A stretch of DNA of 64,000 nt. Origin: an uncultured Gemmatimonadales bacterium (GTDB taxonomy: Bacteria; Gemmatimonadota; Gemmatimonadetes; Longimicrobiales; RSA9). Below are positions 7,410 through 63,187 of this stretch, one piece after another; position 1 is the stretch's first letter; the number at the start of each line of letters is the position of its first letter. The translations under genes and the position numbers were made by a program. The notes beneath the pieces were generated by a model. That model ran no database searches. It had not been told where the DNA came from and worked only from the letters and a program-made list of their open reading frames with translations. Where the stretch lies: assembly GCA_963708135.1 (NCBI GenBank), contig OY970192.1, positions 1,600,001 to 1,664,000 of the forward strand. Reading direction: 5' to 3'.

Positions 7410-9994
7410 TCGCCGTAGGGCACCCAGATGTTCTTCACCTGCGTGGCCTCGCGCAGGAACTCCTGTCCCCCGCCCTGGCGCGCGTCGGTCCAGTCCCGGT
7501 CATGGCCGCAGGACACCCAGGTTCGCTTCATGTTGCCGGCGGAGAGGCGCTCGACCTCGGCGCAGCCTTCGCGCGGGCCGAAGTACCAGACCGCGTCCAC
7601 GTCGTCGTGGGCGGCCAGGACGGGCGCGAGCTCATCGCGGCGGCCGGTCACGATGTTCAGGACGCCGCCGGGCAGGTCGGAGGTGTCGAGGACCTGGTAC
7701 AGGTCCGTGGCCGCGAGCGGCCCGCGCTCGGACGGCACGGCGACGACGGTGTTGCCGAGCGCCACCGGCGGGATCACCGTCGCGACGAACCCGAGGAGCG
7801 GCATCTCGGTCGGGCAGACCACGCCCACCACGCCGATCGGCTCGGGCATGGCGAGGGTGACGTTGCGGAACGGCGTGTGGTGCACGGCGCCGTCCCACTT
7901 GTCGGCCCAGGCGGCGTAGTCGAAGAGGCGACGGACGGCGAGGTCGACCTCGCGGGCGGCGGCGGCGGCGTCGCATGCGCTCATGGTCCGCAGGCGGGAG
8001 GCGAATTCCTCGGCGCGGGCGGCGAGGTTCTCGGCGACGTAGAAGAGGACCTGCGCGCGGTTGTGCGCGGTGGCGCGGGCCCAGCCGGCGGCCTTGTGGG
8101 CGGCCTCGACGGCGTTTCTGATGTCCTTGCGGTTGCCGTGGCCGACCTCGCCGACGAGGGTGCCATCGGGAGCGAGGACGGGAAGGCTGTGGCCCTGGTC
8201 GGGACGGGCCTGCCTGCCGCCGATGTAGAGCTTCGGGGTGCGGTCGATTCCCGGCCCCGCCACCCCGCCGGAGTGGGAGAGTGGGAGAGTGGGGGACCGG
8301 GGCGACGTGCCGGGCGCGGACGGGGCATCGGCCGATCCGGCGTCGAGGGCGGCCGCGTGCTTCGCGGCGGCGGCACTTGTCCCGGCGGCGGCGTTCTTCG
8401 CGGCCGCTTCCTGCTGCGCGGCGCTGGCTCGCGGCGCGGCTGCCTCTCTCTTCGCGCCCGAGTCCCTCGCGGCGACGGACTGGGGCGCGGGCTCTTCGCG
8501 CTCGGCCTGCCACTTCGGCTTCACGTACTCCCAGAGGCCTTCCCTGCCGCCCTCGCGGCCGAAGCCGGACTCGCGATAGCCGCCGAAGCCGGAGGCGGCG
8601 TCGAAGACGTTGGTGCAGTTCACCCAGACGGTGCCGGCCTTGATCTTCGGGGCGATGTCGAGGGCGAGGTTGACGTTCTCGGTCCAGACGCTGGCGGCAA
8701 GGCCGTAGCGGGTGTTGTTGGCGAGGGCGACGGACTCCTCGGGCGTGCGGAAGGTCATGAGCACGATCACGGGCCCGAAGATCTCCTCCTGCGCGATGGT
8801 GGCCGCGGGTGAGACGCCGGTGAAGAGCGTCGGTTTGAAGAAGCAGCCCTCGGGCGGGCAGTCCCAGGAGGGCTGCCACATGGTGGCACCCTCTTCCCTG
8901 CCCCGGGCGACGAGGCGCTCGATCTTCTCGAGCTGGACGGGCGCGATGATGGCGCCGATGTCGGTGGCCTTGTCGAGCGGGTCGCCGACGCGGAGCGTCT
9001 CCATGCGGGCGCGCAGCTTCCTCACGAGCGCGTCGGCCACACCCTCCTGCACGAGGATGCGCGAGCCGGCGCAGCAGACCTGGCCCTGGTTGAACCAGAT
9101 GGCGTCCACGACGCCCTCGACCACACTGTCGAGGTCGGCATCCTCGTAGACGAGAAACGGCGACTTGCCGCCGAGCTCGAGCGAGAGGCGCTTGCCGCTG
9201 CCGGCCGTGGCCGTGCGGATGATGCGGCCGACCTCGGTCGAGCCGGTGAAGGCGATCTTGTCGACGTCCGGATGCTCGACGAGGAGCGCGCCCGTGCGGC
9301 CATCGCCGGTGATGACGTTGACGACGCCGTCCGGGAGGCCCACTTCGCGACAGGTTTCGGCGAAGAGGAGCGCCGTGAGCGGCGTGAACTCGGCCGGCTT
9401 GAGCACCACGGTGTTACCCATGGCCAGCGCGGGCGCGACCTTCCAGGCCAGCATGAGGAGCGGGAAGTTCCACGGGATGATCTGCCCGACGACGCCGACG
9501 GCGGTCGTGTCGCGGAGCTCGGCGTCGGCGGCCATGAGCTGGGCCCAGCCGGCGTGGTGGTAGAAGTGCCGGGCGACGAGCGGGATGTCGATGTCGCGGC
9601 TCTCGCGGATCGGCTTGCCGTTGTCGAGGGACTCGAGGACGGCGAAGAGTCGCGAGTGCTTCTGGACCTGGCGGGCGAGGGCGTAGAGCCAGCGGGCGCG
9701 GGCGTGGCCGTCGGCGTCGCGCCAGGCGGGCAGCGCCGCGCGGGCGGCCGCGACGGCGGCGTCGACGTCGCCGGCGCCGGCCTGTGCGATGCGCGCGAGG
9801 GGCCGAGCGTCGGACGGGTTCGTGGTATCGAAGGACTCGCCGGAGGCGGCCTCCCTCCAGGCGCCGCCGATGAAGAGGCCGAAGGCGCGCTCGCGGGCAT
9901 CCAGCCACTGGCGGGCGGGCGCGACGCTCTCCGGGGCGGGGCCGTACTCGAGAGTCTCGAAGATCTCAGCGACGTTCACCGTGTCTGCCTTCAT
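7406..9994 (-). CDS. Aldehyde dehydrogenase with a second truncated ALDH domain (ALDH16-like)
   Basis: From MKADTVNVAEIFETLEYGPAPES. Motifs IIPWNFP, FTGSTEVG, ELGGKS, GQVCCAG, EEIFGPV, then a second partial ALDH domain. ATGA overlap with deoC. Confidence 0.93.
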   Translation of the reverse strand: MKADTVNVAEIFETLEYGPAPESVAPARQWLDARERAFGLFIGGAWREAASGESFDTTNPSDARPLARIAQAGAGDVDAAVAAARAALPAWRDADGHARARWLYALARQVQKHSRLFAVLESLDNGKPIRESRDIDIPLVARHFYHHAGWAQLMAADAELRDTTAVGVVGQIIPWNFPLLMLAWKVAPALAMGNTVVLKPAEFTPLTALLFAETCREVGLPDGVVNVITGDGRTGALLVEHPDVDKIAFTGSTEVGRIIRTATAGSGKRLSLELGGKSPFLVYEDADLDSVVEGVVDAIWFNQGQVCCAGSRILVQEGVADALVRKLRARMETLRVGDPLDKATDIGAIIAPVQLEKIERLVARGREEGATMWQPSWDCPPEGCFFKPTLFTGVSPAATIAQEEIFGPVIVLMTFRTPEESVALANNTRYGLAASVWTENVNLALDIAPKIKAGTVWVNCTNVFDAASGFGGYRESGFGREGGREGLWEYVKPKWQAEREEPAPQSVAARDSGAKREAAAPRASAAQQEAAAKNAAAGTSAAAAKHAAALDAGSADAPSAPGTSPRSPTLPLSHSGGVAGPGIDRTPKLYIGGRQARPDQGHSLPVLAPDGTLVGEVGHGNRKDIRNAVEAAHKAAGWARATAHNRAQVLFYVAENLAARAEEFASRLRTMSACDAAAAAREVDLAVRRLFDYAAWADKWDGAVHHTPFRNVTLAMPEPIGVVGVVCPTEMPLLGFVATVIPPVALGNTVVAVPSERGPLAATDLYQVLDTSDLPGGVLNIVTGRRDELAPVLAAHDDVDAVWYFGPREGCAEVERLSAGNMKRTWVSCGHDRDWTDARQGGGQEFLREATQVKNIWVPYGE

Positions 9995-52755: not shown

Positions 52756-53178
52756 GGGCCGCCGCCGCGCGCCCCGCCCCCGGGGCTCGGGGTCCGGCGG
52801 TCGGGGCGCGACGCTGTCCGTTTCTCGCGGCCTCGGACGTTGTGGAGTGGCATTCCGCCGGGACTCACCGCCTTGCGGAACGGTTGCATTCGTCCCAGGC
52901 TCCGGAACTCCGAGACAGCGATTCGTCAGATCGTGGCAGCCGAAGAAACGAAATCCTCGGCGGTCGCGCCACGGGCGCGGCTCGCCGGAAACGTCCTATC
53001 TCGTATCCCGACGCGACTCCGCCTCCCGTCACTCGGCACGCGTGGCCGGTGGTGTCGTCGCGCACTCAACCCCGGCGCGGCCTGGCCGTCCGGGACCGTG
53101 GGGCCGCTCCACGCACCCTTGGCGTGGGCCGGCCCCACACTTCATCTCACGCGGTCGAGAGACCAAAGGAGGAAGTTC

Positions 53179-56100
53179 ATGCAGCAACTCTCGCGTTGCG
53201 TCCCTCCGGGACGCGTGCGGAGGCGGGGAGCCGCAGTGCTCCTGGCGGCCTTCGCGGCGGTGGCCGCCCTTCTCTCTCCGGGGGCGGTACGGGCCCAGGC
53301 GGGCGAGGTGGGCGGCACCGTGGTGGCTGCGAACTCGCTGCAACCGTTGTCGGGGGCGCAGATCAGCGTCGTCGGGACGAACAACGGCGTGGTTGCCGGT
53401 CCGGACGGGCGGTTCGTGCTGCACGGCGTCGCAGGGGCGCAGGTCGAGCTGCAGGCGACGATGCTCGGCTACAAGACGGCGACGCAGACGGTGGCGGTCG
53501 GCACGATGGACGTGCGCTTCGAGCTGGCGCAGTCGGCGATCTCGCTGAACGAGCTGGTGGTGACGGGGACCCCGCAGGCGGAGCAGAAGCGGGCGCTCGG
53601 GAACGTGGTCTCGACAGTGGACGCCGCCGCGATCGTCGCGAAGGCGCCTGTAAGCACCGTAGACGAGGTGCTGAACGGGCGCGTGGCCGGCGTGAGCATC
53701 CTCTCCTCGACGGGCGAGGTCGGCGGCGCGAGCCGGATCCACATCCGCGGCGCGACGAGCTTCTCGCTTTCGAACACGCCGCTGATCTACATCGACGGCA
53801 TCCGGGTCAACAACTCCGAGGCTACGGGTCCGCAGACCCAGTCCTTCGGCTCGAGCACGATCTCGCGGTGGAACGACCTGGACCCGAACGAGATCGAGAG
53901 CATCCAGGTGATCAAGGGGCCGGCGGCCGCCACGTTGTACGGCACGGAGGCGGCGCATGGCGTGATCCAGATCATCACCAAGCACGGGCAGAGCGGCGCG
54001 CCCCAGTTTCACCTCCAGGTCAGGGGTGGCGGCAACTCGTTCAGCAACCCCGAGGGGCGGCTTTGGACCAACTATTTCATGGTCAACAATCAGCTCCAGT
54101 CGATCGATCTCACGCAGCTGGAGCAGCGCTGGACGGCGGCCGCGGACTCGATGGGCGTCTCGCCGACGATCTTCCGCACCGGCGGGCTGGCGTCGGCGGA
54201 CCTGAACGTCTCCGGCGGAAACGGCGGCACACACTACTTCCTCTCGGGCGGCCTCGAGCAGAACCAGGGCGTCGTCCCGAGCAACCAGGTCCGCAAGGGC
54301 AACGCGCGGATGAACGTCACGGTCACGCCGGGCGAGCACTGGTCCGCGAACGGCAGCTTCGGGTACGTGGTCGGCCGCACCGACATGGGGCCGGAGTCCG
54401 GCTGGGGCGGCATTCCGTGGACCACCTACTATATGCGCCCCGACAAGATCAACACGTACCACAGGGGCTTCTACAGCTACACGCCCGACGCGTACAACAC
54501 GGCCTTCCAGCTCTGGCAGGACCTGTCCCGCTTCACGGGGAGCGTGCAGCTGCACTACAACCCGACGTCGTGGTTCACGAACCGGGTGACGGTCGGTCTC
54601 GACCAGGTTCACCAGGGGGACAACGAAATCGACAAGAACGTGCCGCAGTACGCCTATCAGGACTCCTACTTCGCCATCGGCGGCCACTGGACGACGGCCT
54701 GGGACATCAACTACACGACGGTCGACTACGCGGGCAACATCACCGCCGACCTGAGTCCGAACTTCAAGTCAACGACGTCTATCGGCGCGCAGTACTACCG
54801 CAAGCACCAGGACTGGATCTCCGCGGGCAACTCGGACTTCCCGGTCCCCGGCCTCACCTCGATCACCGCCACGACCGGCCAGCCCGACCTGCCAACGGGT
54901 GACTACATCAACAACATCACGGCCGGGGTCTTCGCACAGGAGCAGATCGGCTGGCTGAACCGCCGCTTCCTGACCGTGGCGCTACGGCGCGACCAGAACA
55001 GCGCGTTCGGAACGAACTACGGGGCGGCCTACTATCCGAAGGTCAGTGGCTCCTGGGTTCTCACCGATGAGCCGTTCTTCCATGTCTCCGCGCTCAACAC
55101 GCTGAAGCTGCGGGCGGCCTACGGCGCAACGGGCGAGCAGCCCGACCAGTTCGCAGCGCTACGCACGTTCCAGCCCGTGCCAGGCCCGATTGGCGGCACG
55201 GTCACACCGCAGAACGTCGGCAACCCGGATCTCGGTCCGGAGCGCACGGCCGGGCTCGAGGCCGGCTTCGATGCGGGCGTGGCGAACGATCGGATCGGCA
55301 TCGAGTTCACCTACTTCAACCAGGTGACGAAGGACGCGATCCTGCTCCGGCAGATCGCTCCATCGACCGGTTTCTCCGGCAGCCAGTACGTGAACGCCGG
55401 ACGCGTGGACAACAACGGGCTCGAGGTGAACATCCACGGGTCGCCGATCGTGCGCCCCGCCTTCGGGTGGGACCTCGGCGTCAACTTCTCGACCAACAAC
55501 AACACGATCAAGAGCCTGGGTAGCGTGACCGACCAGAATTACGTCCAGGCCGGCAGCTACGTCCGCCACGAGATCGGCTACCCGGTCGGCTCCTGGTTCG
55601 AGAAGAAGCTGGTGAGCGCCACGCTGAACGCGGACGGCACGACCAGCAACCTGATGTGCGACAACGGCAGCGGCGGCACCGTCGATTGCGCCAACGCGCC
55701 GCAGGTCTTCCTCGGCCGCAACATCCCGAAGTTCCAGGGCGGCGTCAACAGCACGTTCACGCTGTTCCGCAACCTCGAGCTGTTCGGGCAGATCGACTTC
55801 GAGACCGGCTTCTCCAAGCTCGACGGGAACGAGCGCGTGCGCTGCTGGTTCTTTGCCGAGTGCCTGGCCAACTGGGATCCCACCTCGGCGGACCCGGTCA
55901 CGGTGGCAGGCTACCAGCACGACTTCGTGTCCGGCCTGATTCACAAAGCCGGCTTCGCAAGGCTGCGCGAGCTCTCGGCGACGTATCACCTCCCGCACTC
56001 GCTCACGCAGCGTCTCGGCGTGAATGGCGCCAGCCTGACGGTTGCCGGACGCAACCTCGCCATTTGGACCAAGTACCCGGGCCTCGACCCCGAGGCCACG

Positions 56101-56199
56101 TTCAACGGCGGCAGCCGCGGCGGCTCGTACAGCCTGTGGGAGCAGGACGTCTTCCCGCAGCTCGAGCAGTTCACCGCGACCCTCAACCTCACCTTCTGA
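53179..56199 (+). CDS. SusC/RagA family TonB-dependent outer membrane transporter
   Basis: AAGGAGG RBS, signal peptide, CarboxypepD-like domain, VVTG, IRG, PLIYIDG, IESIQVIKGPAAATLYG.EAAHGVIQIITK, NPDL.PE, terminal F. Confidence 0.95.
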   Translation: MQQLSRCVPPGRVRRRGAAVLLAAFAAVAALLSPGAVRAQAGEVGGTVVAANSLQPLSGAQISVVGTNNGVVAGPDGRFVLHGVAGAQVELQATMLGYKTATQTVAVGTMDVRFELAQSAISLNELVVTGTPQAEQKRALGNVVSTVDAAAIVAKAPVSTVDEVLNGRVAGVSILSSTGEVGGASRIHIRGATSFSLSNTPLIYIDGIRVNNSEATGPQTQSFGSSTISRWNDLDPNEIESIQVIKGPAAATLYGTEAAHGVIQIITKHGQSGAPQFHLQVRGGGNSFSNPEGRLWTNYFMVNNQLQSIDLTQLEQRWTAAADSMGVSPTIFRTGGLASADLNVSGGNGGTHYFLSGGLEQNQGVVPSNQVRKGNARMNVTVTPGEHWSANGSFGYVVGRTDMGPESGWGGIPWTTYYMRPDKINTYHRGFYSYTPDAYNTAFQLWQDLSRFTGSVQLHYNPTSWFTNRVTVGLDQVHQGDNEIDKNVPQYAYQDSYFAIGGHWTTAWDINYTTVDYAGNITADLSPNFKSTTSIGAQYYRKHQDWISAGNSDFPVPGLTSITATTGQPDLPTGDYINNITAGVFAQEQIGWLNRRFLTVALRRDQNSAFGTNYGAAYYPKVSGSWVLTDEPFFHVSALNTLKLRAAYGATGEQPDQFAALRTFQPVPGPIGGTVTPQNVGNPDLGPERTAGLEAGFDAGVANDRIGIEFTYFNQVTKDAILLRQIAPSTGFSGSQYVNAGRVDNNGLEVNIHGSPIVRPAFGWDLGVNFSTNNNTIKSLGSVTDQNYVQAGSYVRHEIGYPVGSWFEKKLVSATLNADGTTSNLMCDNGSGGTVDCANAPQVFLGRNIPKFQGGVNSTFTLFRNLELFGQIDFETGFSKLDGNERVRCWFFAECLANWDPTSADPVTVAGYQHDFVSGLIHKAGFARLRELSATYHLPHSLTQRLGVNGASLTVAGRNLAIWTKYPGLDPEATFNGGSRGGSYSLWEQDVFPQLEQFTATLNLTF

Positions 56200-56211
56200 G
56201 CGGGGCTAGCC

Positions 56212-57495
56212 ATGAATTCGAACCACACGCGCAGAACGCTCCGCGAGGTGCTCCGGCCCGCCCGCTGGGGGCTGGCCGGCGCCGCGCTGGCGGCTCTGCT
56301 TGCCGGCTGTAACCTCCTGAAGGTGGACGCGCCGAGCCGGATCCCGGCCGACCAGCTCGCGTCTCCCAACAACGCCTCACTCCTCGTGCAGGGTGCCGTG
56401 GCGGATTTCGAGTGCGCGTACGGCGCATACGTCGGCCTCACGGCGGAGCTCTCCCACGAGATGGTGGATGCCACCGAGACCGCCGCCCGCTGGGTCTACG
56501 ACAAGCGGGACGTACACTCGAACGACGCGCTGTACGGCACCTCGGGGTGCGAGGCCCTGGGCGTCTACACGCCCCTGTCCACCGCCCGCTGGTCGGCGGA
56601 CAACATCCTGACCAAGCTCCAGGCCTGGAGTGACGCGGAGGTGCCGGACCGGCAGAAGCTGATCGCGACGGCTGCCGCATACGCAGGCTACGACTACCTG
56701 CTCCTCGGCGAGGGCTTCTGCAGCGCCGCGATCGACCTTTCGGCGCCGCTGACCTCGCAGGAGCTCTTTGCTCAGGCCGAGGATCGTTTCACCACCGCCA
56801 TCCAGGCCGCGCAGAGCTCGGGGTCTACCGACATCCTGAACCTCGCCTACGTCGGCAGGGCCAGGGCGCGACTGGACCAGGGCGACCTCCAGGGCGCCGG
56901 CGCCAATGCCGCGCTCGTTCCCGCCGGTTTCGAGTTCGACGCAACGGCGTCCGCATCCGCCAGCCGCCGCAGCAACCGCGTCTATGCCCAGAACGGGCAG
57001 AATCCGACCACCGGCGGCGAGGCGATGTCGGTGGACTCCGCCTACATCGATGTGATGTTCGACGGGGTCGCGGATCCGCGCGTTCCGGTGGTCGATGCCC
57101 ACTTCAGCACGACCAACGGGACGCCGATGTTCTATCAGCTCAAGTACAACTCGCTCTCCGATCCGATCCCGGTCGCGACCTACACGGAGGCGCAGCTGAT
57201 TCTGGCCGAGGCGGAGGGCGGGCAGCAGGCGGTCAACATCATCAATCAGCTGCACGATGCCGTCGGGTTGCCGCACTTCCAGAGCACGAACCCGGATTCC
57301 ATCGAGGCGCAGATCCTCTGGGAGCGGCGCAGCGCGCTGTGGCTCCAGGGTGAGCGCTTCTACGACATCCGCCGCATGAACCTGCCGCTCGTGCCGGCGC
57401 CTGGCGCGCCGTACAAGAACGGCGGCGTGTACGGCGACACGCGCTGTCTGCCGCTTCCGGACGTGGAGACCAACAACAACCCCAACGCCGGCTGA
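56212..57495 (+). CDS. SusD/RagB family lipoprotein
   Basis: Lipobox LAGC, EAQLILAEA, ERR.ALW..G.R.YDIRR, LPLPDVE..NNPN. Confidence 0.9.
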   Translation: MNSNHTRRTLREVLRPARWGLAGAALAALLAGCNLLKVDAPSRIPADQLASPNNASLLVQGAVADFECAYGAYVGLTAELSHEMVDATETAARWVYDKRDVHSNDALYGTSGCEALGVYTPLSTARWSADNILTKLQAWSDAEVPDRQKLIATAAAYAGYDYLLLGEGFCSAAIDLSAPLTSQELFAQAEDRFTTAIQAAQSSGSTDILNLAYVGRARARLDQGDLQGAGANAALVPAGFEFDATASASASRRSNRVYAQNGQNPTTGGEAMSVDSAYIDVMFDGVADPRVPVVDAHFSTTNGTPMFYQLKYNSLSDPIPVATYTEAQLILAEAEGGQQAVNIINQLHDAVGLPHFQSTNPDSIEAQILWERRSALWLQGERFYDIRRMNLPLVPAPGAPYKNGGVYGDTRCLPLPDVETNNNPNAG

Positions 57496-57614: not shown

Positions 57615-58082
57615 TCAACCGCGCGCTCCCGCCTCCCGCAGCAGCGGAGGGAGGAAGCGGGCCCCGGCGCCCCCCCTCCGCGCCGCGTCGCCGGGATTCG
57701 AGACGGCGCAGCGGTCGAGCGAGAGACAGCCGCACCCGATGCACGAGTCCAGCCCGTCCCGCAGCGCGACCAGCGCCTCGATCTGCTCGTCAAGCCGCGC
57801 CCGCCAGCCGCGCGAGAGACGGGTCCAGTCCGCCCGCGTGGGCGCCCGGCCGCCCGGAAGCTGCGCCAGCGCCTCTCGCACCTCGTCCAGACTCAGCCCG
57901 ATGTTCTGCGCCGCCCGCAGGAAGGCCAGCCGCCGCAGCACGTCGCGCCCGAAGCGACGCTGCCCGCCGCCGGTGCGCGTGGCGGCAATGAGCCCCTCGC
58001 GCTCGTAGTAGCGCACGGCCGAGGCGGCCAGCCCGCTGCGCGCGGCGACCTCGCCGACGGCGAGGGTGTTGGAGGTGGTCAT
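57615..58082 (-). CDS. soxR: Redox-sensitive transcriptional activator SoxR
   Basis: MerR HTH (VGEVAARSG.AASAVRYYE) and the [2Fe-2S] motif LDSCIGCGCLSLDRC. Confidence 0.96.
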   Translation of the reverse strand: MTTSNTLAVGEVAARSGLAASAVRYYEREGLIAATRTGGGQRRFGRDVLRRLAFLRAAQNIGLSLDEVREALAQLPGGRAPTRADWTRLSRGWRARLDEQIEALVALRDGLDSCIGCGCLSLDRCAVSNPGDAARRGGAGARFLPPLLREAGARG

Positions 58083-58091
58083 GTCGGCCCC

Positions 58092-58122
58092 TTGACTTGA
58101 AGTTGACTTCAACTTGTAAGAT
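58092..58122 (+). promoter_or_regulatory. MerR-type promoter with SoxR box
   Basis: -35 TTGACT (58092-97), 19-nt spacer, -10 TAAGAT (58117-22). Inverted repeat TTGAAGT-TG-ACTTCAA at 58097-58112. Confidence 0.88.
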
Positions 58123-58156
58123 GGGGGGACGACGCTCACGACACAAGGAGAGAGAC

Positions 58157-58855
58157 ATGCGCACGGCCCTCATCACCGGCGGCTCCCGCGGCCTCGGCCG
58201 CGCCATCGTCCATGCCCTCGCCCGGCGGGGCTGGTCGGTCATCCTCGACGGGCGCGACGCCGCCGTCCTGCGCGCGTCCGTAGCGGCGCTGCCGGCGGGC
58301 CGCGTTCGCGCGCTCGCCGGGGACGTCACGGACGCGGTGCACCGGGAGGCCCTGCTCTCGACGGCGCGGGAGCTGGGCGCGCTGGACCTGCTGTGCAACA
58401 ACGCCAGCGCGCTCGGTCCGAGCCCGCTCCGGGAGCTGGCCGTCTACCCGCCGGCGGAGCTCGCCCGGGTGCTGGAGTCCAACCTGCTCGCGCCGCTGGC
58501 GCTCATGCAGGGCACGCTGCCGATGCTGGCGGAGGCCGGCGGCACGATCGTGAACGTGAGCTCGGACGCGGCGGTGGAGGCGTATCCGGGCTGGGGCGGC
58601 TACGGCGCGTCGAAGGCGGCGCTGGATCGTGTCTCGGCGGTGCTGGCGGCCGAGCGGCCGGCCGTGCGGGTGTACGCGTTCGACCCCGGGGACATGCGCA
58701 CGGAAATGCACCAGCGTGCCTATCCCGGGCAGGACATCTCGGACCGGCCGGAGCCGGAGACGGTGGTCCCTTCCCTGCTCCGGCTGCTGGAGGAGCGGCC
58801 GCCGAGCGGACGCTACCGCGCGGCAGACCTCCGTCCGGCCTCGGTTTTCCCGTGA
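58157..58855 (+). CDS. Short-chain dehydrogenase/reductase
   Basis: AAGGAG RBS, TGGSRGLG, NNA, NVSS, YGASK, DPG.M.T. Confidence 0.94.
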   Translation: MRTALITGGSRGLGRAIVHALARRGWSVILDGRDAAVLRASVAALPAGRVRALAGDVTDAVHREALLSTARELGALDLLCNNASALGPSPLRELAVYPPAELARVLESNLLAPLALMQGTLPMLAEAGGTIVNVSSDAAVEAYPGWGGYGASKAALDRVSAVLAAERPAVRVYAFDPGDMRTEMHQRAYPGQDISDRPEPETVVPSLLRLLEERPPSGRYRAADLRPASVFP

Positions 58856-59919
58856 ACGCCGGGTCCGCCGGTCCCCATCGGGCCGTGAAGTCGGGTCTCC
58901 CGCGGGAGCCGGTGGCGACGACACCGCCGGAGGCGAGAGGGCTGGCCAGGGATGAGGTCCGGCTCCTCGTCGCCGGACCGGGCGGTGCCATACACACGCG
59001 GTTCCGCGCCCTGCCGCGCTTTATCCGGCCCGGCGACCTGCTGGTGGTCAACACGTCGGCCACCTTGCCGGCGGCGGTGGACGCGCGCCGGGACGACGGC
59101 GCGCCGGTGACCGTTCACGCCTCCACGTCGCTGGATGATGGAAGCTGGCTGGTGGAGGTGCGCCCGCCCGGCCACGCCACGGGCCCGCTGCCCGACGCGC
59201 GGCGCGGCGAGCGTCTCGCGCTTCCGGGCGGCGCGCGGCTGACGCTCGAGGCGGCGTACCCCGACCAGGCGGCGGAGCGCTCCCGGCTATGGCGGGCGCG
59301 GATCTCGGGGGCCGCGGGGCTGCGCGGGATCCTCGCGCGGCACGGGCGGCCGATCGCGTACGCCTACGTGCGGGGGCGCTGGCCGCTGGCGGCGTACCAG
59401 GCGGTCTTCGCGCGGCACCCCGGGAGCGCGGAGATGCCGAGCGCCGGCCGTCCGTTCAGCCGCCGGCTGGTGCGTTCGCTGCTTGCCCGCGGGGTCGGGA
59501 TCGCGCCTGTGGTGCTGCACACGGGCGTGTCCTCGGGGGAAGGTCCGCTTCCCGAGCCGTTCCGGGTGCCGCGAGGCACTGCCCGGCGGATCGAGGCGGT
59601 GCATGCGGCCGGCGGGCGCGTCATCGCCGTGGGAACGACCGTGACGCGCGCCCTGGAGACGCTCGCGGCGGAGGACGGGACGGTGCGCCACGGCGGCGGC
59701 TGGACCGATCTGGTGCTTGGGCCGCGGCGTCCGGCGCGGGCGGTGGACGGGATCGTGACCGGGTGGCACCCGGCGGGTGCATCGCACCTGGAGCTGCTCG
59801 CGGCCGTGGCCGGGCGCCGGCTCGTACGCCGGGCGTACCGCGCGGCGCGCGCCGCGCGGTACCTGTGGCACGAGTTCGGGGACAGCGCGCTGTTCCTGCG
59901 CGCTACTTCGGGAGCGTGA
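58852..59919 (+). CDS. QueA-like SAM:ribosyltransferase-isomerase family protein (divergent)
   Basis: GTGA overlap with the SDR. RD..RLLV, PGDLLVVN, AVGTT..RALE, YQAVFA, GSAEMPSAGRPF, YLWHEFGDS. Confidence 0.88.
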   Translation: MNAGSAGPHRAVKSGLPREPVATTPPEARGLARDEVRLLVAGPGGAIHTRFRALPRFIRPGDLLVVNTSATLPAAVDARRDDGAPVTVHASTSLDDGSWLVEVRPPGHATGPLPDARRGERLALPGGARLTLEAAYPDQAAERSRLWRARISGAAGLRGILARHGRPIAYAYVRGRWPLAAYQAVFARHPGSAEMPSAGRPFSRRLVRSLLARGVGIAPVVLHTGVSSGEGPLPEPFRVPRGTARRIEAVHAAGGRVIAVGTTVTRALETLAAEDGTVRHGGGWTDLVLGPRRPARAVDGIVTGWHPAGASHLELLAAVAGRRLVRRAYRAARAARYLWHEFGDSALFLRATSGA

Positions 59920-62900
59920 CCGGCGCCTGCCCTGCGGCGCGCAAGCGGGCGTTCAGGGCGTCGAGTCCGGTGGTGGAGAGCGCGGTCCACTTCGGCAGCA
60001 CGCCCTGCAGCTCGGCGCGCGCCGCGGCGGCCTCCGCCACCTCGCGCGCGGTCGGGGCGACATCGGCGCCCTGCATGGCCATAGCGGCGCCGAGCAGCGC
60101 GGTCGCGGCGCTGCGCAGACTGGGCGGCCCCGATGGCGCGGCGCGGAAGAAGAAGCCGCGGCGGGCCGAGGGCGCGGGCGCGAGGGCCTCGACCTTCGCC
60201 TTGAAGGTCTGGACATCGCTGCCCTGGAGCGAGTCGAGTGCGGCCACGAGCGCCCGCGCCCGGGCGTAGGCCGCATGGGCCTGGACGGCGCCGTCGTACA
60301 TCTCGCGCGAGAGGGAGGCGAGGCGGGCGAGGTCGGCGGGCGGCGTTTTCACGCGCGGATCGAGGCGCAGCGTGAGCGGCCGCGTGAACTGCCGTCCCGC
60401 CACCGTCAGCCGCACGGTATAGCGCCCCGGCGGCGCCCAGGGCGCCTGGACCGACGGGTAGGTGCGGTGGGGCACCGCGGCTCCGCCCTCGGCACGCGGC
60501 TCCTCGCCATCGACGGGGTCATACTTGAGGTCCCAGCTGAAGCGGTGCATCCCGGCTCCGGTGGAGAGGGTCATCTGCGGCGCGGCCCAGTAGAGGGGCA
60601 CGTCGCAATCGGGTGCGCCGGGGTTGCGCTGGCACACCTCGTCGTAGGCGGCGGGATCGGTGCCCGGGTCGGGCTCGAGCACGGGATCATGGCTCGAGTA
60701 GGAGCGGATCACCTTGCCGCCTGTGTCCAGGATGTCCAGGGTCACGGGTCCCGACGTCGCGTGCGCCAGGTAGTAGTCGATGATGCCACCGGGGGGCGGG
60801 TTCTCCCCGGCCGGCAGCTCGGGCGGCCAGGGCGTGGGGTCGTTGGTGCCGAAGCGCACGCGCACGGCCGTCTCGGGCCTGAAGAGGTAGGCGGTGCTCG
60901 CCGCCTCGGCCTCGGCCGCCTGCCGCAGCGGCGTGACGTCGTCGAGGATCCAGAAGCCGCGGCCGTGGGTCCCGGCCACGAGGTCGGAGCAGAGGCAGTG
61001 GTCGTCGTCCTTCACCTGGATGTCGCGCACGGAGACGGCGGGCATGTTCAGCCGCAGCGAGCGCCAGTGGTCGCCGTCATCGAAGGACACCCAGACCTGG
61101 GCGTCGGTGGCGGCGTAGAGGAGGCCCTTCCTGCGCGGGTCCTCGCGGATCGAGTTGGCCACCGCGCCGGGCGCGATCCCGGTGTCGATCTCCGTCCAGG
61201 TCCTGCCGCCGTCGTGGGTGCGCCAGAAGTGCGGGTTCATGTCGTCGATCCGCATCGTGTTGGCGGCGGCGTAGGCGGTGAGCGTGTCGAAGTGGCCGGC
61301 ATCCATGTTGAAGATGCGGGTCCACGGCTTCACGGCGGGAGGCGTCACGTCGCTCCAGTGGGCGCCGCCGTCCATGGTGACCTGGATGTTGCCGTCGTCG
61401 GTACCGGCCCAGAGCACGCCCACGCCGAGCGGCGAGGGCGCGAGCGCGGTGATCACGCCCTGCGGCGAGACCTCGACGTCGCTCGCGTACTTCCCCGCGC
61501 TGGCCGGCACCTTCCAGGTCTTGCGGGAAAGGTCGGGGCTGATGCGCGTCCAGGTGTGCGCGTGGTCCGTCGTCTTCCAGACGGCGTCCGACGTGTAGAA
61601 CAGCACGTCCGGATCTGCCGGAGACCACTGCAGCGGCATGGTGCGCACGTTCCGGTTGTACGGCCCGCCCCGCGGCCCCATGTCCGGCCCGACGTTCGTC
61701 GTCTGCCCCGTCTTCCGGTTGTAGAGCGAGACGTTGTTGCGGCTGCCGCCGTAGACCATGTCGGGGTCGTTCGGGTCGGGCGCGGCGATACCGTACTCCT
61801 GGATGTTGACGGGGTGCCAGTCGTGGAAGGTGATCTCGCCGTCCATGGAGCGGCTCTCGACGCAGGCGGAGCCGGAGTCCTGCTGGCCGCCGCAGAGGCG
61901 GTAGGGGAAGGCGTTGTCCGCGGTGACGTGGTACATGGCGGCCGTGGGCTGGGTGTACCAGTTGCTCCACGAGGCGCCGCGGTTGCCGGAGACCACCGCG
62001 CCCTGGTCCGCCACGGCGAGGATGATGTTCGGGTCGTTCGGGTTGATCCAGATCTTCTGGTAGTCGTCGCCGCCCGGCGCGCCGCGCACGGCGCTCCACA
62101 TGCGGCCGCCGTCCTCCGTCCGCCACATGACGACGGAAGCGCTGTAGACCACGTTCGGGTCCTTCGGGTCAATGGTGATGGTCGGCAGATCGCCGCCGCC
62201 GATACGGCGCAGGGGACGCGGATCGGCGACCCCGTCGCCGGCATCCTTCGCCGCCGGGTCGTCCACGGCCTGCCAGTGCGCGCCCGCGTCGGTGGAGCGG
62301 TAGAGGGCGACGACGCCGGTCGTGCCACCGTCGCGTCCCGCCCCCGTGGCGGCCGACCGCTCCGGCGTCACCGCGGCGATGGCGTAGACGATGTCGGGGT
62401 TGCTCGGCGCGATGGCCAGGTTGGCCTCGATCACCTGCGGCAGGCCGGCGCTCAGCTGCGTCCAGGTGGTGCCGCCGTCGGTGGACTTGAAGATGCCGTT
62501 GCCGGTGCCGCCGAACTCGCCGCTCTCGCGGAAGCTCTGCTGCTGCTGCCAGAGCGTGGCGTACACGACGCTCGGGTCGGCGGGGTCGATCAGCACGTCG
62601 TTGCCGCTCGTGTACTCATCCTTGTAGAGCACCTTCTCGAAGGTCTTGCCGCCATCGGTCGAGCGGAAGATCCCGCGCTCCGGGTTGGGGCCGTAGGGGT
62701 GGCCGAGCGCCGCCACGAACAGCCGGTCCGGGTTGGTGGGGTCCACGGCGATGTTGGCGATCATCTGCGTCTCGTCGAGGCCCAGGTGCGTCCACGTCGC
62801 GCCCGCGTCCGCCGACCTGTAGACGCCGTCGCCCGTGGACAGGTCGGGGCGGATGATGCCGGCGCCGGTGCCGACGTAGATCAGGCTCGGGTTGGTGGGC

Positions 62901-63187
62901 GCGACCGCGATGGCGCCGATCGAGCCGGTGGCCTCGTTGTCGAAGAGCGGATGCCAGGTGGAGCCGTAGTCGGTCGAGCGCCAGACGCCGCCGTTGTCGA
63001 AGCCGACGTAGAAGACGTTGGGCTGGCCGGGCACGCCGGAGAGCGCGCGGGCGCGGCCGGCGCGGGGCGGACCGATCTGGCGCCAGCGCATGCCGGAATA
63101 CAGGTCGGGCGCCTGCGCCGCCGCGAGCGAGGCCGAGGCGGCGAGCAGGATCAGGGTGAGGGTCGCTCGGAAGAGGGCTGTGCGCAC
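59903..63187 (-). CDS. Secreted VPS10/BNR-repeat (sortilin-like) glycosyl hydrolase-related protein
   Basis: Signal peptide, WRQIGP..AGR, many S.D.G..W Asp-box repeats, GTHGRGFWILDD. Confidence 0.88.
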   Translation of the reverse strand: MRTALFRATLTLILLAASASLAAAQAPDLYSGMRWRQIGPPRAGRARALSGVPGQPNVFYVGFDNGGVWRSTDYGSTWHPLFDNEATGSIGAIAVAPTNPSLIYVGTGAGIIRPDLSTGDGVYRSADAGATWTHLGLDETQMIANIAVDPTNPDRLFVAALGHPYGPNPERGIFRSTDGGKTFEKVLYKDEYTSGNDVLIDPADPSVVYATLWQQQQSFRESGEFGGTGNGIFKSTDGGTTWTQLSAGLPQVIEANLAIAPSNPDIVYAIAAVTPERSAATGAGRDGGTTGVVALYRSTDAGAHWQAVDDPAAKDAGDGVADPRPLRRIGGGDLPTITIDPKDPNVVYSASVVMWRTEDGGRMWSAVRGAPGGDDYQKIWINPNDPNIILAVADQGAVVSGNRGASWSNWYTQPTAAMYHVTADNAFPYRLCGGQQDSGSACVESRSMDGEITFHDWHPVNIQEYGIAAPDPNDPDMVYGGSRNNVSLYNRKTGQTTNVGPDMGPRGGPYNRNVRTMPLQWSPADPDVLFYTSDAVWKTTDHAHTWTRISPDLSRKTWKVPASAGKYASDVEVSPQGVITALAPSPLGVGVLWAGTDDGNIQVTMDGGAHWSDVTPPAVKPWTRIFNMDAGHFDTLTAYAAANTMRIDDMNPHFWRTHDGGRTWTEIDTGIAPGAVANSIREDPRRKGLLYAATDAQVWVSFDDGDHWRSLRLNMPAVSVRDIQVKDDDHCLCSDLVAGTHGRGFWILDDVTPLRQAAEAEAASTAYLFRPETAVRVRFGTNDPTPWPPELPAGENPPPGGIIDYYLAHATSGPVTLDILDTGGKVIRSYSSHDPVLEPDPGTDPAAYDEVCQRNPGAPDCDVPLYWAAPQMTLSTGAGMHRFSWDLKYDPVDGEEPRAEGGAAVPHRTYPSVQAPWAPPGRYTVRLTVAGRQFTRPLTLRLDPRVKTPPADLARLASLSREMYDGAVQAHAAYARARALVAALDSLQGSDVQTFKAKVEALAPAPSARRGFFFRAAPSGPPSLRSAATALLGAAMAMQGADVAPTAREVAEAAAARAELQGVLPKWTALSTTGLDALNARLRAAGQAPVTLPK

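Follow-up and report, generated by a model that had tools for sequence, protein, structure and literature searches.

A soxR gene divergent from a coupled short-chain dehydrogenase and QueA-paralog operon: a recurrent gene cassette predicted to be redox-inducible

Introduction

To our knowledge QueA is the only enzyme that uses the ribose of S-adenosylmethionine (SAM) as a building block, and its family is treated as having a single function. SoxR is a redox sensor of the MerR family. In the accessible part of one study (PMC4411124), a typical SoxR target stands head-to-head with soxR and has an inverted repeat between its -35 and -10 elements, with a spacer of 19 bp; the same part gives CCTCAAGTTAACTTGAGG as the consensus of the Escherichia coli SoxR box.

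The present work concerns a locus where relatives of these two proteins are encoded side by side. It lies in a 64,000-nucleotide stretch of contig OY970192.1 from an uncultured Gemmatimonadales bacterium (hereafter the window), and it consists of a soxR gene and a divergent operon coding for a short-chain dehydrogenase/reductase (SDR) and a QueA-like protein. From the letters of the window alone, the original prediction had read this operon as controlled by SoxR, and had proposed that the QueA-like protein acts with the SDR on a non-tRNA or non-queuosine substrate, e.g. by reducing and then ribosylating a redox-cycling compound, or makes a stress-induced RNA modification. The best explanation of our results, to which we give about an even chance, is a SoxR-induced two-enzyme module acting on a substrate foreign to queuosine synthesis, probably a small molecule. 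The proposed interpretation is thus upheld in part: a conserved arrangement and a unique box support control by SoxR, and comparison of sequences supports a distinct, non-queuosine paralog, while the chemistry keeps the rank of a tentative proposal.

Results

Gene organisation of the locus

The gene soxR (57615-58082, minus strand) encodes a MerR-family [2Fe-2S] redox sensor of 155 residues. The protein scores 194.9 bits against the NCBIfam model TIGR01950, for an equivalog cut-off of 116.9, and the Pfam profiles MerR_1, MerR and MerR-DNA-bind all match its N-terminal helix-turn-helix and its dimerisation helix. Its translation contains C114-x2-C117-x-C119-x5-C125 (CIGCGCLSLDRC), i.e. the C-terminal CX2CXCX5C arrangement that we take to be the [2Fe-2S] motif of SoxR. 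A profile search of the whole genome (a single contig of 5.45 Mb with 72% G+C) finds one SoxR above the TIGR01950 cut-off. We favour the ATG at 58082 over an upstream GTG at 58139 as the start of soxR because the box described below sits 12 nt from the ATG.

On the opposite strand, the SDR gene (58157-58855, plus strand) codes for a classical short-chain dehydrogenase/reductase of 232 residues (Pfam adh_short, PF00106, 128 bits). We take a TGxxxGxG motif, an NNAG-type motif and a Ser-Tyr-Lys set to be the hallmarks of classical SDRs; the translation has TGGSRGLG, NNAS, S136, Y149 and K153, which places it in this class. G12, G14, R33, N82, S136, Y149 and K153 are invariant in 54 orthologs, as is a C-terminal motif proper to the family, DPGDMRT-MHQ-AFPGEDISDRP. 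No NCBIfam model reaches its cut-off for the SDR, while its closest solved relatives belong to the sepiapterin-reductase group: with a profile built from the 54 orthologs these are the ketoreductase 6YC8, the uncharacterised Brucella-type SDR 4Z0T, yeast YIR035C, sepiapterin reductases and YciK (E values from 1e-39 to 1e-30). In classical SDRs an arginine after the second strand goes with NADP(H), and the invariant R33 occupies that place; by this rule the cofactor would be NADP(H). The SDR is therefore probably an NADPH-dependent carbonyl reductase of a sepiapterin-reductase-like kind.

The third gene (58852-59919, plus strand, GTG start) encodes a QueA-fold paralog of 355 residues, which matches PF02547 with 214.7 bits over profile positions 8-321 of 322. 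The stop codon of the SDR gene and the start codon of the QueA-like gene overlap in GTGA (58852-58855, plus strand), so that the two genes are translationally coupled. The divergent arrangement read by the original prediction is therefore present as described.

A single SoxR-type promoter in the genome

The operon has a promoter of the MerR type (58092-58122, plus strand), as read from the sequence: a -35 element TTGACT (58092-58097), a spacer of 19 nt and a -10 element TAAGAT (58117-58122). Within it lies a SoxR-box-like element of 20 nt, ACTTGAAGTTGACTTCAACT (58094-58113, plus strand), whose palindrome has two perfect arms of 7 nt in the spacer, TTGAAGT (58097-58103) and ACTTCAA (58106-58112). 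A standard scan for promoters and terminators, which allows spacers of 16-18 nt, returns nothing at the SDR promoter because the spacer there is 19 nt; this blank fits a MerR-type promoter. By manual count the window box matches the E. coli consensus at 12 of 18 positions, and it retains the AAGTT/AACTT core of that consensus (taken from the accessible part of PMC4411124).

In the 5.45-Mb genome a box with the full architecture occurs at this single site; the next TTGA-anchored palindrome differs from it at 10 or more of 20 positions. By this measure the operon is the sole predicted SoxR target and appears to be the entire SoxR regulon of the genome. Weaker SoxR-box-like palindromes that do not follow a TTGA -35 element occur at C1:92759 and C1:1768722. 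They differ from the reference boxes at 4 and 5 positions, and the one at C1:1768722 is placed between two divergent open frames.

A QueA-like protein set apart from the queuosine enzyme

The QueA-like protein stays well below the QueA equivalog models: 152.8 bits against a cut-off of 324 for NF001140, 119.9 against 267.45 for TIGR00113, and 65.6 against 588 for a third model. The original prediction held that canonical QueA motifs are systematically replaced in it, and this replacement is seen both in the window protein and across the clade to which it belongs. The motifs RPIAYAYV, GSAEMPSAGRPF, TGWHPAG and YLWHEFGD of the window protein stand in place of PPY(L/I), GSVAAPTAGLHF, TNFHLP and YRF(Y/F)SYGD of 17 canonical QueAs. 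In the four-motif comparison (PPYI, GSVAAPTAGLHF, TNFHLPRST and YRF(Y/F)S(Y/F)GD), all four are replaced in the window protein and across 78 paralog rows. Clade-wide, canonical PPY(I/L), GSVAAPTAGLHFT, LHVG-GT, TNFHLPRSTLLML and YRF(Y/F)SYGD become PI-Y-YV, GSAEMPSAGRPFT, LHTGVSS, TG(W/F/L)H-P-ASHL-LL and YLWHEFGD, respectively. The Thermotoga and Thermus QueAs, seen in alignments from the Protein Data Bank (PDB), carry the same canonical motifs as the 17.

Conservation was compared between 16 canonical and 78 paralog rows, at a threshold of 88%. The same residue is conserved in both groups at 38 positions, e.g. R33, D62, N67, R104, R145, Y182-Q183-T184, G191-S192, H223, E235, G261-T262-T263, R266, E269, H306 and G343-D344. 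Ten positions are switched from one conserved residue to another (canonical to paralog: V to T71, A to E194, A to M195, T to S197, L to R200, T to S228, T to A267, N to G304, L to H312 and S to E341). Another 17 positions, H340 among them, are conserved in the paralogs alone, and 63 in the canonical set alone, an overestimate that stems from the narrowness of this set. At ten positions the canonical sample has a conserved basic residue that the paralogs do not conserve.

A family tree was built from 95 rows, the 78 paralogs and 17 canonical sequences; 16 of the latter come from the window's own order, including the C-terminal part of the copy in this genome, and one from a Deinococcota (a Deinococcaceae metagenome-assembled genome, MAG). 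In this quick search (LG+G4, unrooted) the 17 canonical rows lie on one side of a branch with an SH-like approximate likelihood ratio support (SH-aLRT) of 100, and the window protein on the other. The phylogeny called for by the original prediction therefore separates the window protein from canonical QueA. The nearest row to it is that of a Thermoanaerobaculia MAG (L017, 66% identity) and not the copies from its own order (L006 and L007), a placement that suggests horizontal transfer of the gene.

An AlphaFold2 model computed with 83 paralog sequences in the alignment has a pLDDT of 92.9 and a pTM of 0.91. Searched with Foldseek, it matches only the QueA structures 1YY3, 1VKY and 1WDI (E about 1e-22), the next hit having an E value above 0.1. 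In the model the switched motifs fall in loops just after the strands 189-192, 216-222, 257-260 and 300-304, and before the strand 345-349; the residues conserved clade-wide in the paralog loops after beta-strands are E194, M195, R200, S228, H312, H340 and E341. Enzymes of the alpha/beta type usually bind their substrates in loops after beta-strands. The fold is thus that of QueA, and sequence comparison supports a separate paralog, distinct from the queuosine enzyme.

The charge of the protein was tried as an indicator of lost RNA binding and set aside. The family has a median net charge of -5 and the window protein is very basic (net charge +22, isoelectric point 11.6), so that this measure does not discriminate.

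The cassette in other genomes

Actinomycetota supply most of the database proteins closest to the QueA-like protein (60-69% identity), and Longimicrobiales and Thermoanaerobaculia MAGs are also represented; all bear the generic QueA name. A HMMER scan gives 570 cluster representatives at E of 1e-30 or less, more than 150 of them above 190 bits, and a collection with one genome per species contains at least 599 stretches that match the paralog, at least 595 of them confirmed. In the ESM Atlas the hits were all QueA-family clusters under generic names, with Actinomycetota as the main source.

The surroundings were surveyed at 84 loci: the best 80 of the at least 595 public stretches, the window, and three loci from relatives (including L008, from the unpublished genome G016). 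An SDR gene lies directly upstream on the same strand at 82 of the 84 loci (81 of 83 when L008 is left out), the exceptions being L019, which is at a contig end, and L085. At 63 of these 82 loci the SDR stop and the QueA-like start share a 4-nt overlap (38 ATGA and 25 GTGA). Seven more loci have the overlap codon in frame, with a tblastn match that starts a few codons upstream, which makes a 4-nt overlap probable there too. The window cassette has the shared layout in all respects, i.e. an SDR gene directly upstream on the same strand, the 4-nt overlap and the motif set of the paralog. No third gene and no shared alternative regulator is conserved across the 84 loci, the largest cluster of neighbours being found at 7 of them. 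The cassette recurs with the same composition in several phyla, and recurrence of the gene pair, the overlap and the promoter architecture at dozens of loci indicates that the arrangement in the window is not due to chance.

Neighbours other than the SDR are often efflux or detoxification genes. They include cytosine/purine permeases (three Amycolatopsis loci), DrrAB-like ABC-2 exporters (four Nocardia loci), major facilitator superfamily (MFS) pumps, a glyoxalase-family protein, oxidoreductases, LigA and a TipAS-type MerR regulator.

Among 40 relatives of the source genome, all have a canonical-type match, with 34-45% identity to the window QueA-like protein. Matches at the level of the paralog (50% or more) were found in G012, G030 and G016, and fragments in G020. 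SDR orthologs (56-57% identity) occur solely in G012, G016 and G030, i.e. in the genomes with a clear copy of the paralog, and the two genes are adjacent in each. A more distant pair of an SDR and a QueA-family gene (43% and 42% identity to the window proteins) is present at G010:C234:7262-8961, where the canonical QueA is on another contig.

The two proteins also occur as a natural SDR::QueA-like fusion of 599-617 residues in two Streptomyces strains (P0200, of 606 residues, P0274 and P0275). Its QueA-like half has 45% identity to the window protein and reads YLWGEFGD. Both the overlap and the fusion would suit an unstable intermediate that is passed from one enzyme to the other. A complex prediction for the SDR and the QueA-like protein scored 0.01 for a mark of 0.32, a result that counts neither for nor against contact.

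A plasmid search gave no sign of carriage of the cassette on plasmids: its single hit lies in a Nonomuraea record of 11.85 Mb that is classed as a plasmid, and the match there is unannotated. Among public sequencing runs, one soil DNA run contains a small share of the sampled words, and no RNA run is listed.

SoxR linkage across loci

The original prediction suggested a survey for the soxR-SDR-queA-like order, and this order recurs. A SoxR ortholog with 55-73% identity to the window SoxR is encoded near the cassette at 38 of the 84 loci, and at 35 of them soxR is divergent and no more than 300 bp from the SDR gene. Such loci are found in Actinomycetota, in one Acidobacteriota MAG and in a bin labelled Cyanobacteriota. 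Their aligned promoters read CTTGAC-TTGAAGTTGACTTCAACT-N2-(C/T)A-N3-T. A promoter was counted as SoxR-type in the strict sense if, in the 150 nt before the SDR gene, TTGA precedes a 20-nt box in which 7 or more of 9 positions pair. Such a promoter is present at 32 of 38 loci with soxR and at 17 of 43 without, while random windows taken from the surveyed loci give 5 of 6404. With a looser definition of the palindrome the counts are 35 of 38 and 19 of 43, for 63 of 2387 in the null set. Several boxes at loci without soxR are nearer to the E. coli consensus, e.g. that of L062 (Kribbella), ACCTCAAGTTAACTTGAAGT. In four of four actinobacterial genomes where the pair stands without soxR beside it, one or two true SoxRs are encoded at other sites. 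Judged from these promoters, control of the cassette by SoxR would be common, not universal.

Other operators appear in some lineages. At L065, L083 and L087 (Acidimicrobiales) an AT-rich palindrome, AAAACAAG-N6-CTTGTTAT, is found 60-70 nt upstream of the SDR gene instead of a SoxR-type box, and another regulator presumably binds there. L047 and L049 (Actinomycetospora), which are without soxR, have a gene for a TipAS-type MerR regulator about 400 nt downstream of the QueA-like gene and, in the promoter of the SDR gene, a different palindrome (GACCT...AGGTC); these features point to another MerR-family drug sensor as the regulator.

The queuosine pathway in this and other hosts

The original prediction held that no tgt or other que gene lies in the window, and matches to tgt, canonical queA, QueF and QueC are indeed all outside the 64 kb; queD, queE and queG/H were not searched for. 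The separate canonical queA that it suggested looking for near tgt exists elsewhere in the genome, but interrupted. In a whole-genome search this gene lies at about C1:539560-542228, directly upstream of tgt (542360-543451), and it is split between Pfam positions 83 and 85 by a repeat array of 1637 nt (539821-541457). In the array a 234-nt unit is repeated seven times head to tail, with 98-100% identity between copies and a length of 233 nt for the seventh. The N- and C-terminal parts of the gene are in different frames, and all three frames are open through the array. In 16 relatives the translated canonical QueA matches have no stop and no such array. The array may be a real disruption, a 546-residue insertion combined with a one-base assembly error, or something else, and a working canonical QueA in this genome is not certain. 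QueF gives a weak match (C1:3445822-3446004, 29.5 bits, 61 of 81 positions) and QueC a partial match of the size of a PP-loop (C1:2138700-2138876, 22.2 bits). Taken with the interruption of queA, these poor matches raise the possibility that the genome relies on salvage for queuosine or is losing the pathway.

Members of the repeat family to which the 234-nt unit belongs are dispersed through the genome: more than 100 partial matches occur, on either strand and often in tandem arrays with a period of about 225-250 nt (e.g. C1:3232057-3234385, 4709326-4710602 and 3128588-3129811), and one match of 28 nt falls in the window, at 8271-8298. Since one half of the unit matches the other in the opposite orientation, the unit is in itself an inverted repeat.

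Among ten genomes that carry the pair, eight have no second PF02547 match and five have no TGT. QueF was found in none of the five actinobacterial hosts searched for it (0/5), and QueC there amounts to short PP-loop matches. An even sample of 201 Actinomycetota genomes gives bimodal scores against the window protein, either at least 168 bits or at most 125 bits. The strong class counts 50 genomes, 10 with a canonical-type hit as well and 40 without; 71 genomes have the canonical type alone and 80 have neither. TGT is present in 14 of the 50 paralog carriers (36 lack it) compared with 95 of the 151 other genomes; these counts were cross-tabulated by eye and related genomes are not independent. 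When three unpublished carriers (G068, G170 and G221) are left out, 47 of 198 genomes carry the paralog and 33 of the 47 carriers lack TGT.

Free or tRNA-bound preQ1 was considered as the acceptor and rejected for most hosts, since TGT is missing from 36 of 50 and QueF was found in 0 of 5. The paralog is found mostly in bacteria without TGT, QueF and canonical QueA; thus its acceptor would not be preQ1-tRNA, and gene content shows the QueA-like enzyme to be independent of the queuosine pathway, as the original prediction had supposed.

In G046, the Thermoanaerobaculia MAG that contains L017, the canonical queA (C2:1410774-1411808) and tgt (C5:432395-433453) are each in three or four pieces in different frames, and the paralog is intact. 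These pieces may reflect indel errors of long reads or gene decay.

Other genes in the window

A 1094-residue protein with Sortilin/Vps10-type repeats is encoded at 59903-63187 (minus strand), convergent on the QueA-like gene, with 17 nt shared by the 3' ends of the two frames. Just upstream of soxR (52840-57495, plus strand) are an open frame of 1119 residues and then a gene for a 427-residue SusD/RagB-family protein, as identified with Pfam for this second gene. The pair looks like an outer-membrane nutrient-uptake pair.

Discussion

In the module that we propose, SoxR would bind the palindrome inside the over-long 19-nt spacer. Quinones, phenazines and similar compounds would oxidise its [2Fe-2S] cluster, upon which the promoter would be remodelled and the operon transcribed. 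The GTGA overlap would then yield the SDR and the QueA-like enzyme in fixed proportion. The latter most likely still uses SAM, because the core residues common to the QueA family are conserved. Its acceptor would be a small molecule, given that the tRNA acceptor is absent from most hosts, that new polar residues occupy the loops and that the partner is a predicted carbonyl reductase. A possible form of this chemistry, which we put forward tentatively, is 'reduce and cap': the SDR would turn a redox-cycling carbonyl or quinone into a nucleophilic reduced form, or else process the product, and the QueA-like enzyme would put the ribose-derived C5 unit of SAM on this small-molecule nucleophile, so that redox cycling would end.

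Several points weigh against the proposed module. Activation by SoxR, the use of SAM, the acceptor and the order of the steps are inferred from sequence. Most of the loci without soxR (26 of 43) have no strict SoxR-type promoter, and some loci have other regulators (LuxR-type, TetR, ArsR or TipAS-MerR) or other palindromes. The best 80 of the at least 595 public stretches favour close relatives of the window protein. The limit between paralogs and canonical QueAs is blurred, since TNFH survives in P0259 and midpoint rooting places five deep 'paralog' rows on the canonical side; the canonical sample is itself narrow, with 16 sequences of the window's order and one from Deinococcota. The switched residues are placed at the active site solely by their position after beta-strands in the model, and the net charge of the window protein, as noted above, gives no sign of lost RNA binding. 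In the natural fusion the SDR half is orthologous (40% identity), but neither the glycine-rich cofactor motif nor the DPGDMRT motif is left in it.

The same observations can be read in other ways. The cassette could make a small metabolite from SAM alone, its ribose being converted to an epoxy- or hydroxy-cyclopentane and the acceptor being water or a nucleophile common in cells, after which the SDR, by oxidation or reduction, would give either a protective (reductone-like) or a signalling compound under redox stress. The two-gene unit is self-contained, with no third gene conserved in 84 loci; the overlap and the fusion suit the transfer of an unstable intermediate, the residues common to all QueA-family proteins are retained, and one cassette composition across phyla is easier to reconcile with a universal substrate, for which SAM would qualify, than with a variety of xenobiotics. 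We nevertheless hold this reading to be rather unlikely. We know of no SAM-derived epoxy- or hydroxy-cyclopentane of the proposed kind. The accessible part of one review of ribomimetics (PMC9092360) contains no matching compound, and SoxR regulons described in the accessible parts of PMC4146615 and PMC4411124 consist mostly of efflux and redox enzymes. The present data do not separate this reading from conjugation to a small molecule. Action on RNA, by which a SAM-derived group would be placed under redox stress on another amine-bearing nucleoside of tRNA or rRNA and finished by the SDR, is favoured by the retention of the full QueA architecture, beta-barrel domain included, by the very basic character of the window protein (isoelectric point 11.6), and by the fact that the activity of QueA is the only one characterised for the fold. 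It is improbable, as the known acceptor is missing (36 of 50 hosts are without TGT, and QueF is found in 0 of 5), the ten basic positions of canonical QueAs are not conserved, the family has a median net charge of -5, no RNA-related gene is found among the conserved neighbours, and the SDR has no counterpart in queuosine synthesis.

Two further readings have very little to recommend them. The interruption of the canonical queA by a 1637-nt array, with its halves in different frames and the adjacent tgt intact, might lead one to suppose that the paralog replaces QueA in this genome and makes epoxyqueuosine. This is highly improbable for a protein without the canonical motifs, below the equivalog cut-offs, from a family found mostly in TGT-less genomes, and whose gene is under predicted SoxR control and not placed with tgt; besides, the one-base change of frame may be an assembly error in a G-rich repeat. 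Nor do we give much credence to a catalytically dead QueA-like protein, i.e. a partner or scaffold for an SDR that would carry out the SoxR-induced chemistry alone. The canonical motifs are replaced, and an SDR by itself would be a normal SoxR target, but the 38 positions in common with QueA and the new polar set are conserved across a very diverse clade, and conservation over the full length in at least 595 stretches argues for selection on an active site. We therefore retain the two-enzyme module with a non-queuosine substrate as the best explanation.

The cassette is an uncharacterised variant of known parts. We found no account in the literature of a QueA paralog of this kind, of an SDR-QueA pair or of a SoxR-controlled QueA-family gene, most subscription journals lying outside the coverage of the search. 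The paralog forms a large unstudied branch of the QueA family: at least 595 stretches in the collection of species genomes, about a quarter of the sampled Actinomycetota (50/201), and scattered members in other soil phyla. This branch travels with its own reductase, mostly in bacteria unable to make queuosine, and in many lineages it is wired to a sensor for redox-active antibiotics. It might provide a second kind of ribosyl transfer from SAM (as a C5 carbocycle), to a small molecule, and together with the NADPH reductase a SoxR-induced disarming of redox-cycling antibiotics; we regard this as a speculative outcome. The solution of the paralog's reaction would probably bring new SAM chemistry and could reveal a new way in which soil bacteria handle phenazines and quinones. 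The present genome would be a clean test system for this, with an operon that is apparently its whole SoxR regulon.

Comparison with known systems places each part of the cassette. The two-domain fold of QueA (PF02547; TIGR00113/NF001140; 1VKY, 1YY3, 1WDI) is shared by the window paralog, with a full-length alignment at about 25-30% identity and 38 conserved positions in common, including YQT, GS, LH-G, AVGTT-R-LE and FGD. In contrast to QueA, the paralog lacks the motifs TNFHLPRST, GLHF and YRFYSYGD, has ten switched positions and stays below both equivalog cut-offs; it is encoded with an SDR and not with tgt, behind a SoxR-type promoter, and in genomes without TGT, QueF and canonical QueA. 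The window SDR has the TGxxxGxG, NNAS and S-Y-K motifs of the sepiapterin reductase/YciK/YIR035C group, whereas it is shorter (232 residues), has a C-terminal motif of its own and is paired with a QueA-like gene.

As to regulation, the six-gene SoxR regulon of Streptomyces coelicolor (accessible part of PMC4146615) is likewise a small set of redox or detoxification enzymes, each behind a SoxR box. It differs in that the paper reports no target from the QueA family, its main text containing neither 'queuosine' nor 'dehydrogenase', whereas the predicted regulon here is a single operon. There is also a likeness with soxR-soxS of E. coli and soxR-mfsA of Stenotrophomonas maltophilia, as described in the accessible part of PMC4411124: head-to-head genes, and a 19-bp spacer between -35 and -10 that contains an inverted repeat. 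The distance from the box to the start of soxR is 12 nt in the window and 7 bp in S. maltophilia, and the half-site of the box is (A)CTTGAAGT in the window and CCTCAAGT in the E. coli consensus. The target differs too: where these known divergent soxR systems control a regulator (soxS) or a pump (mfsA), the soxR of the window is predicted to control a pair of enzymes.

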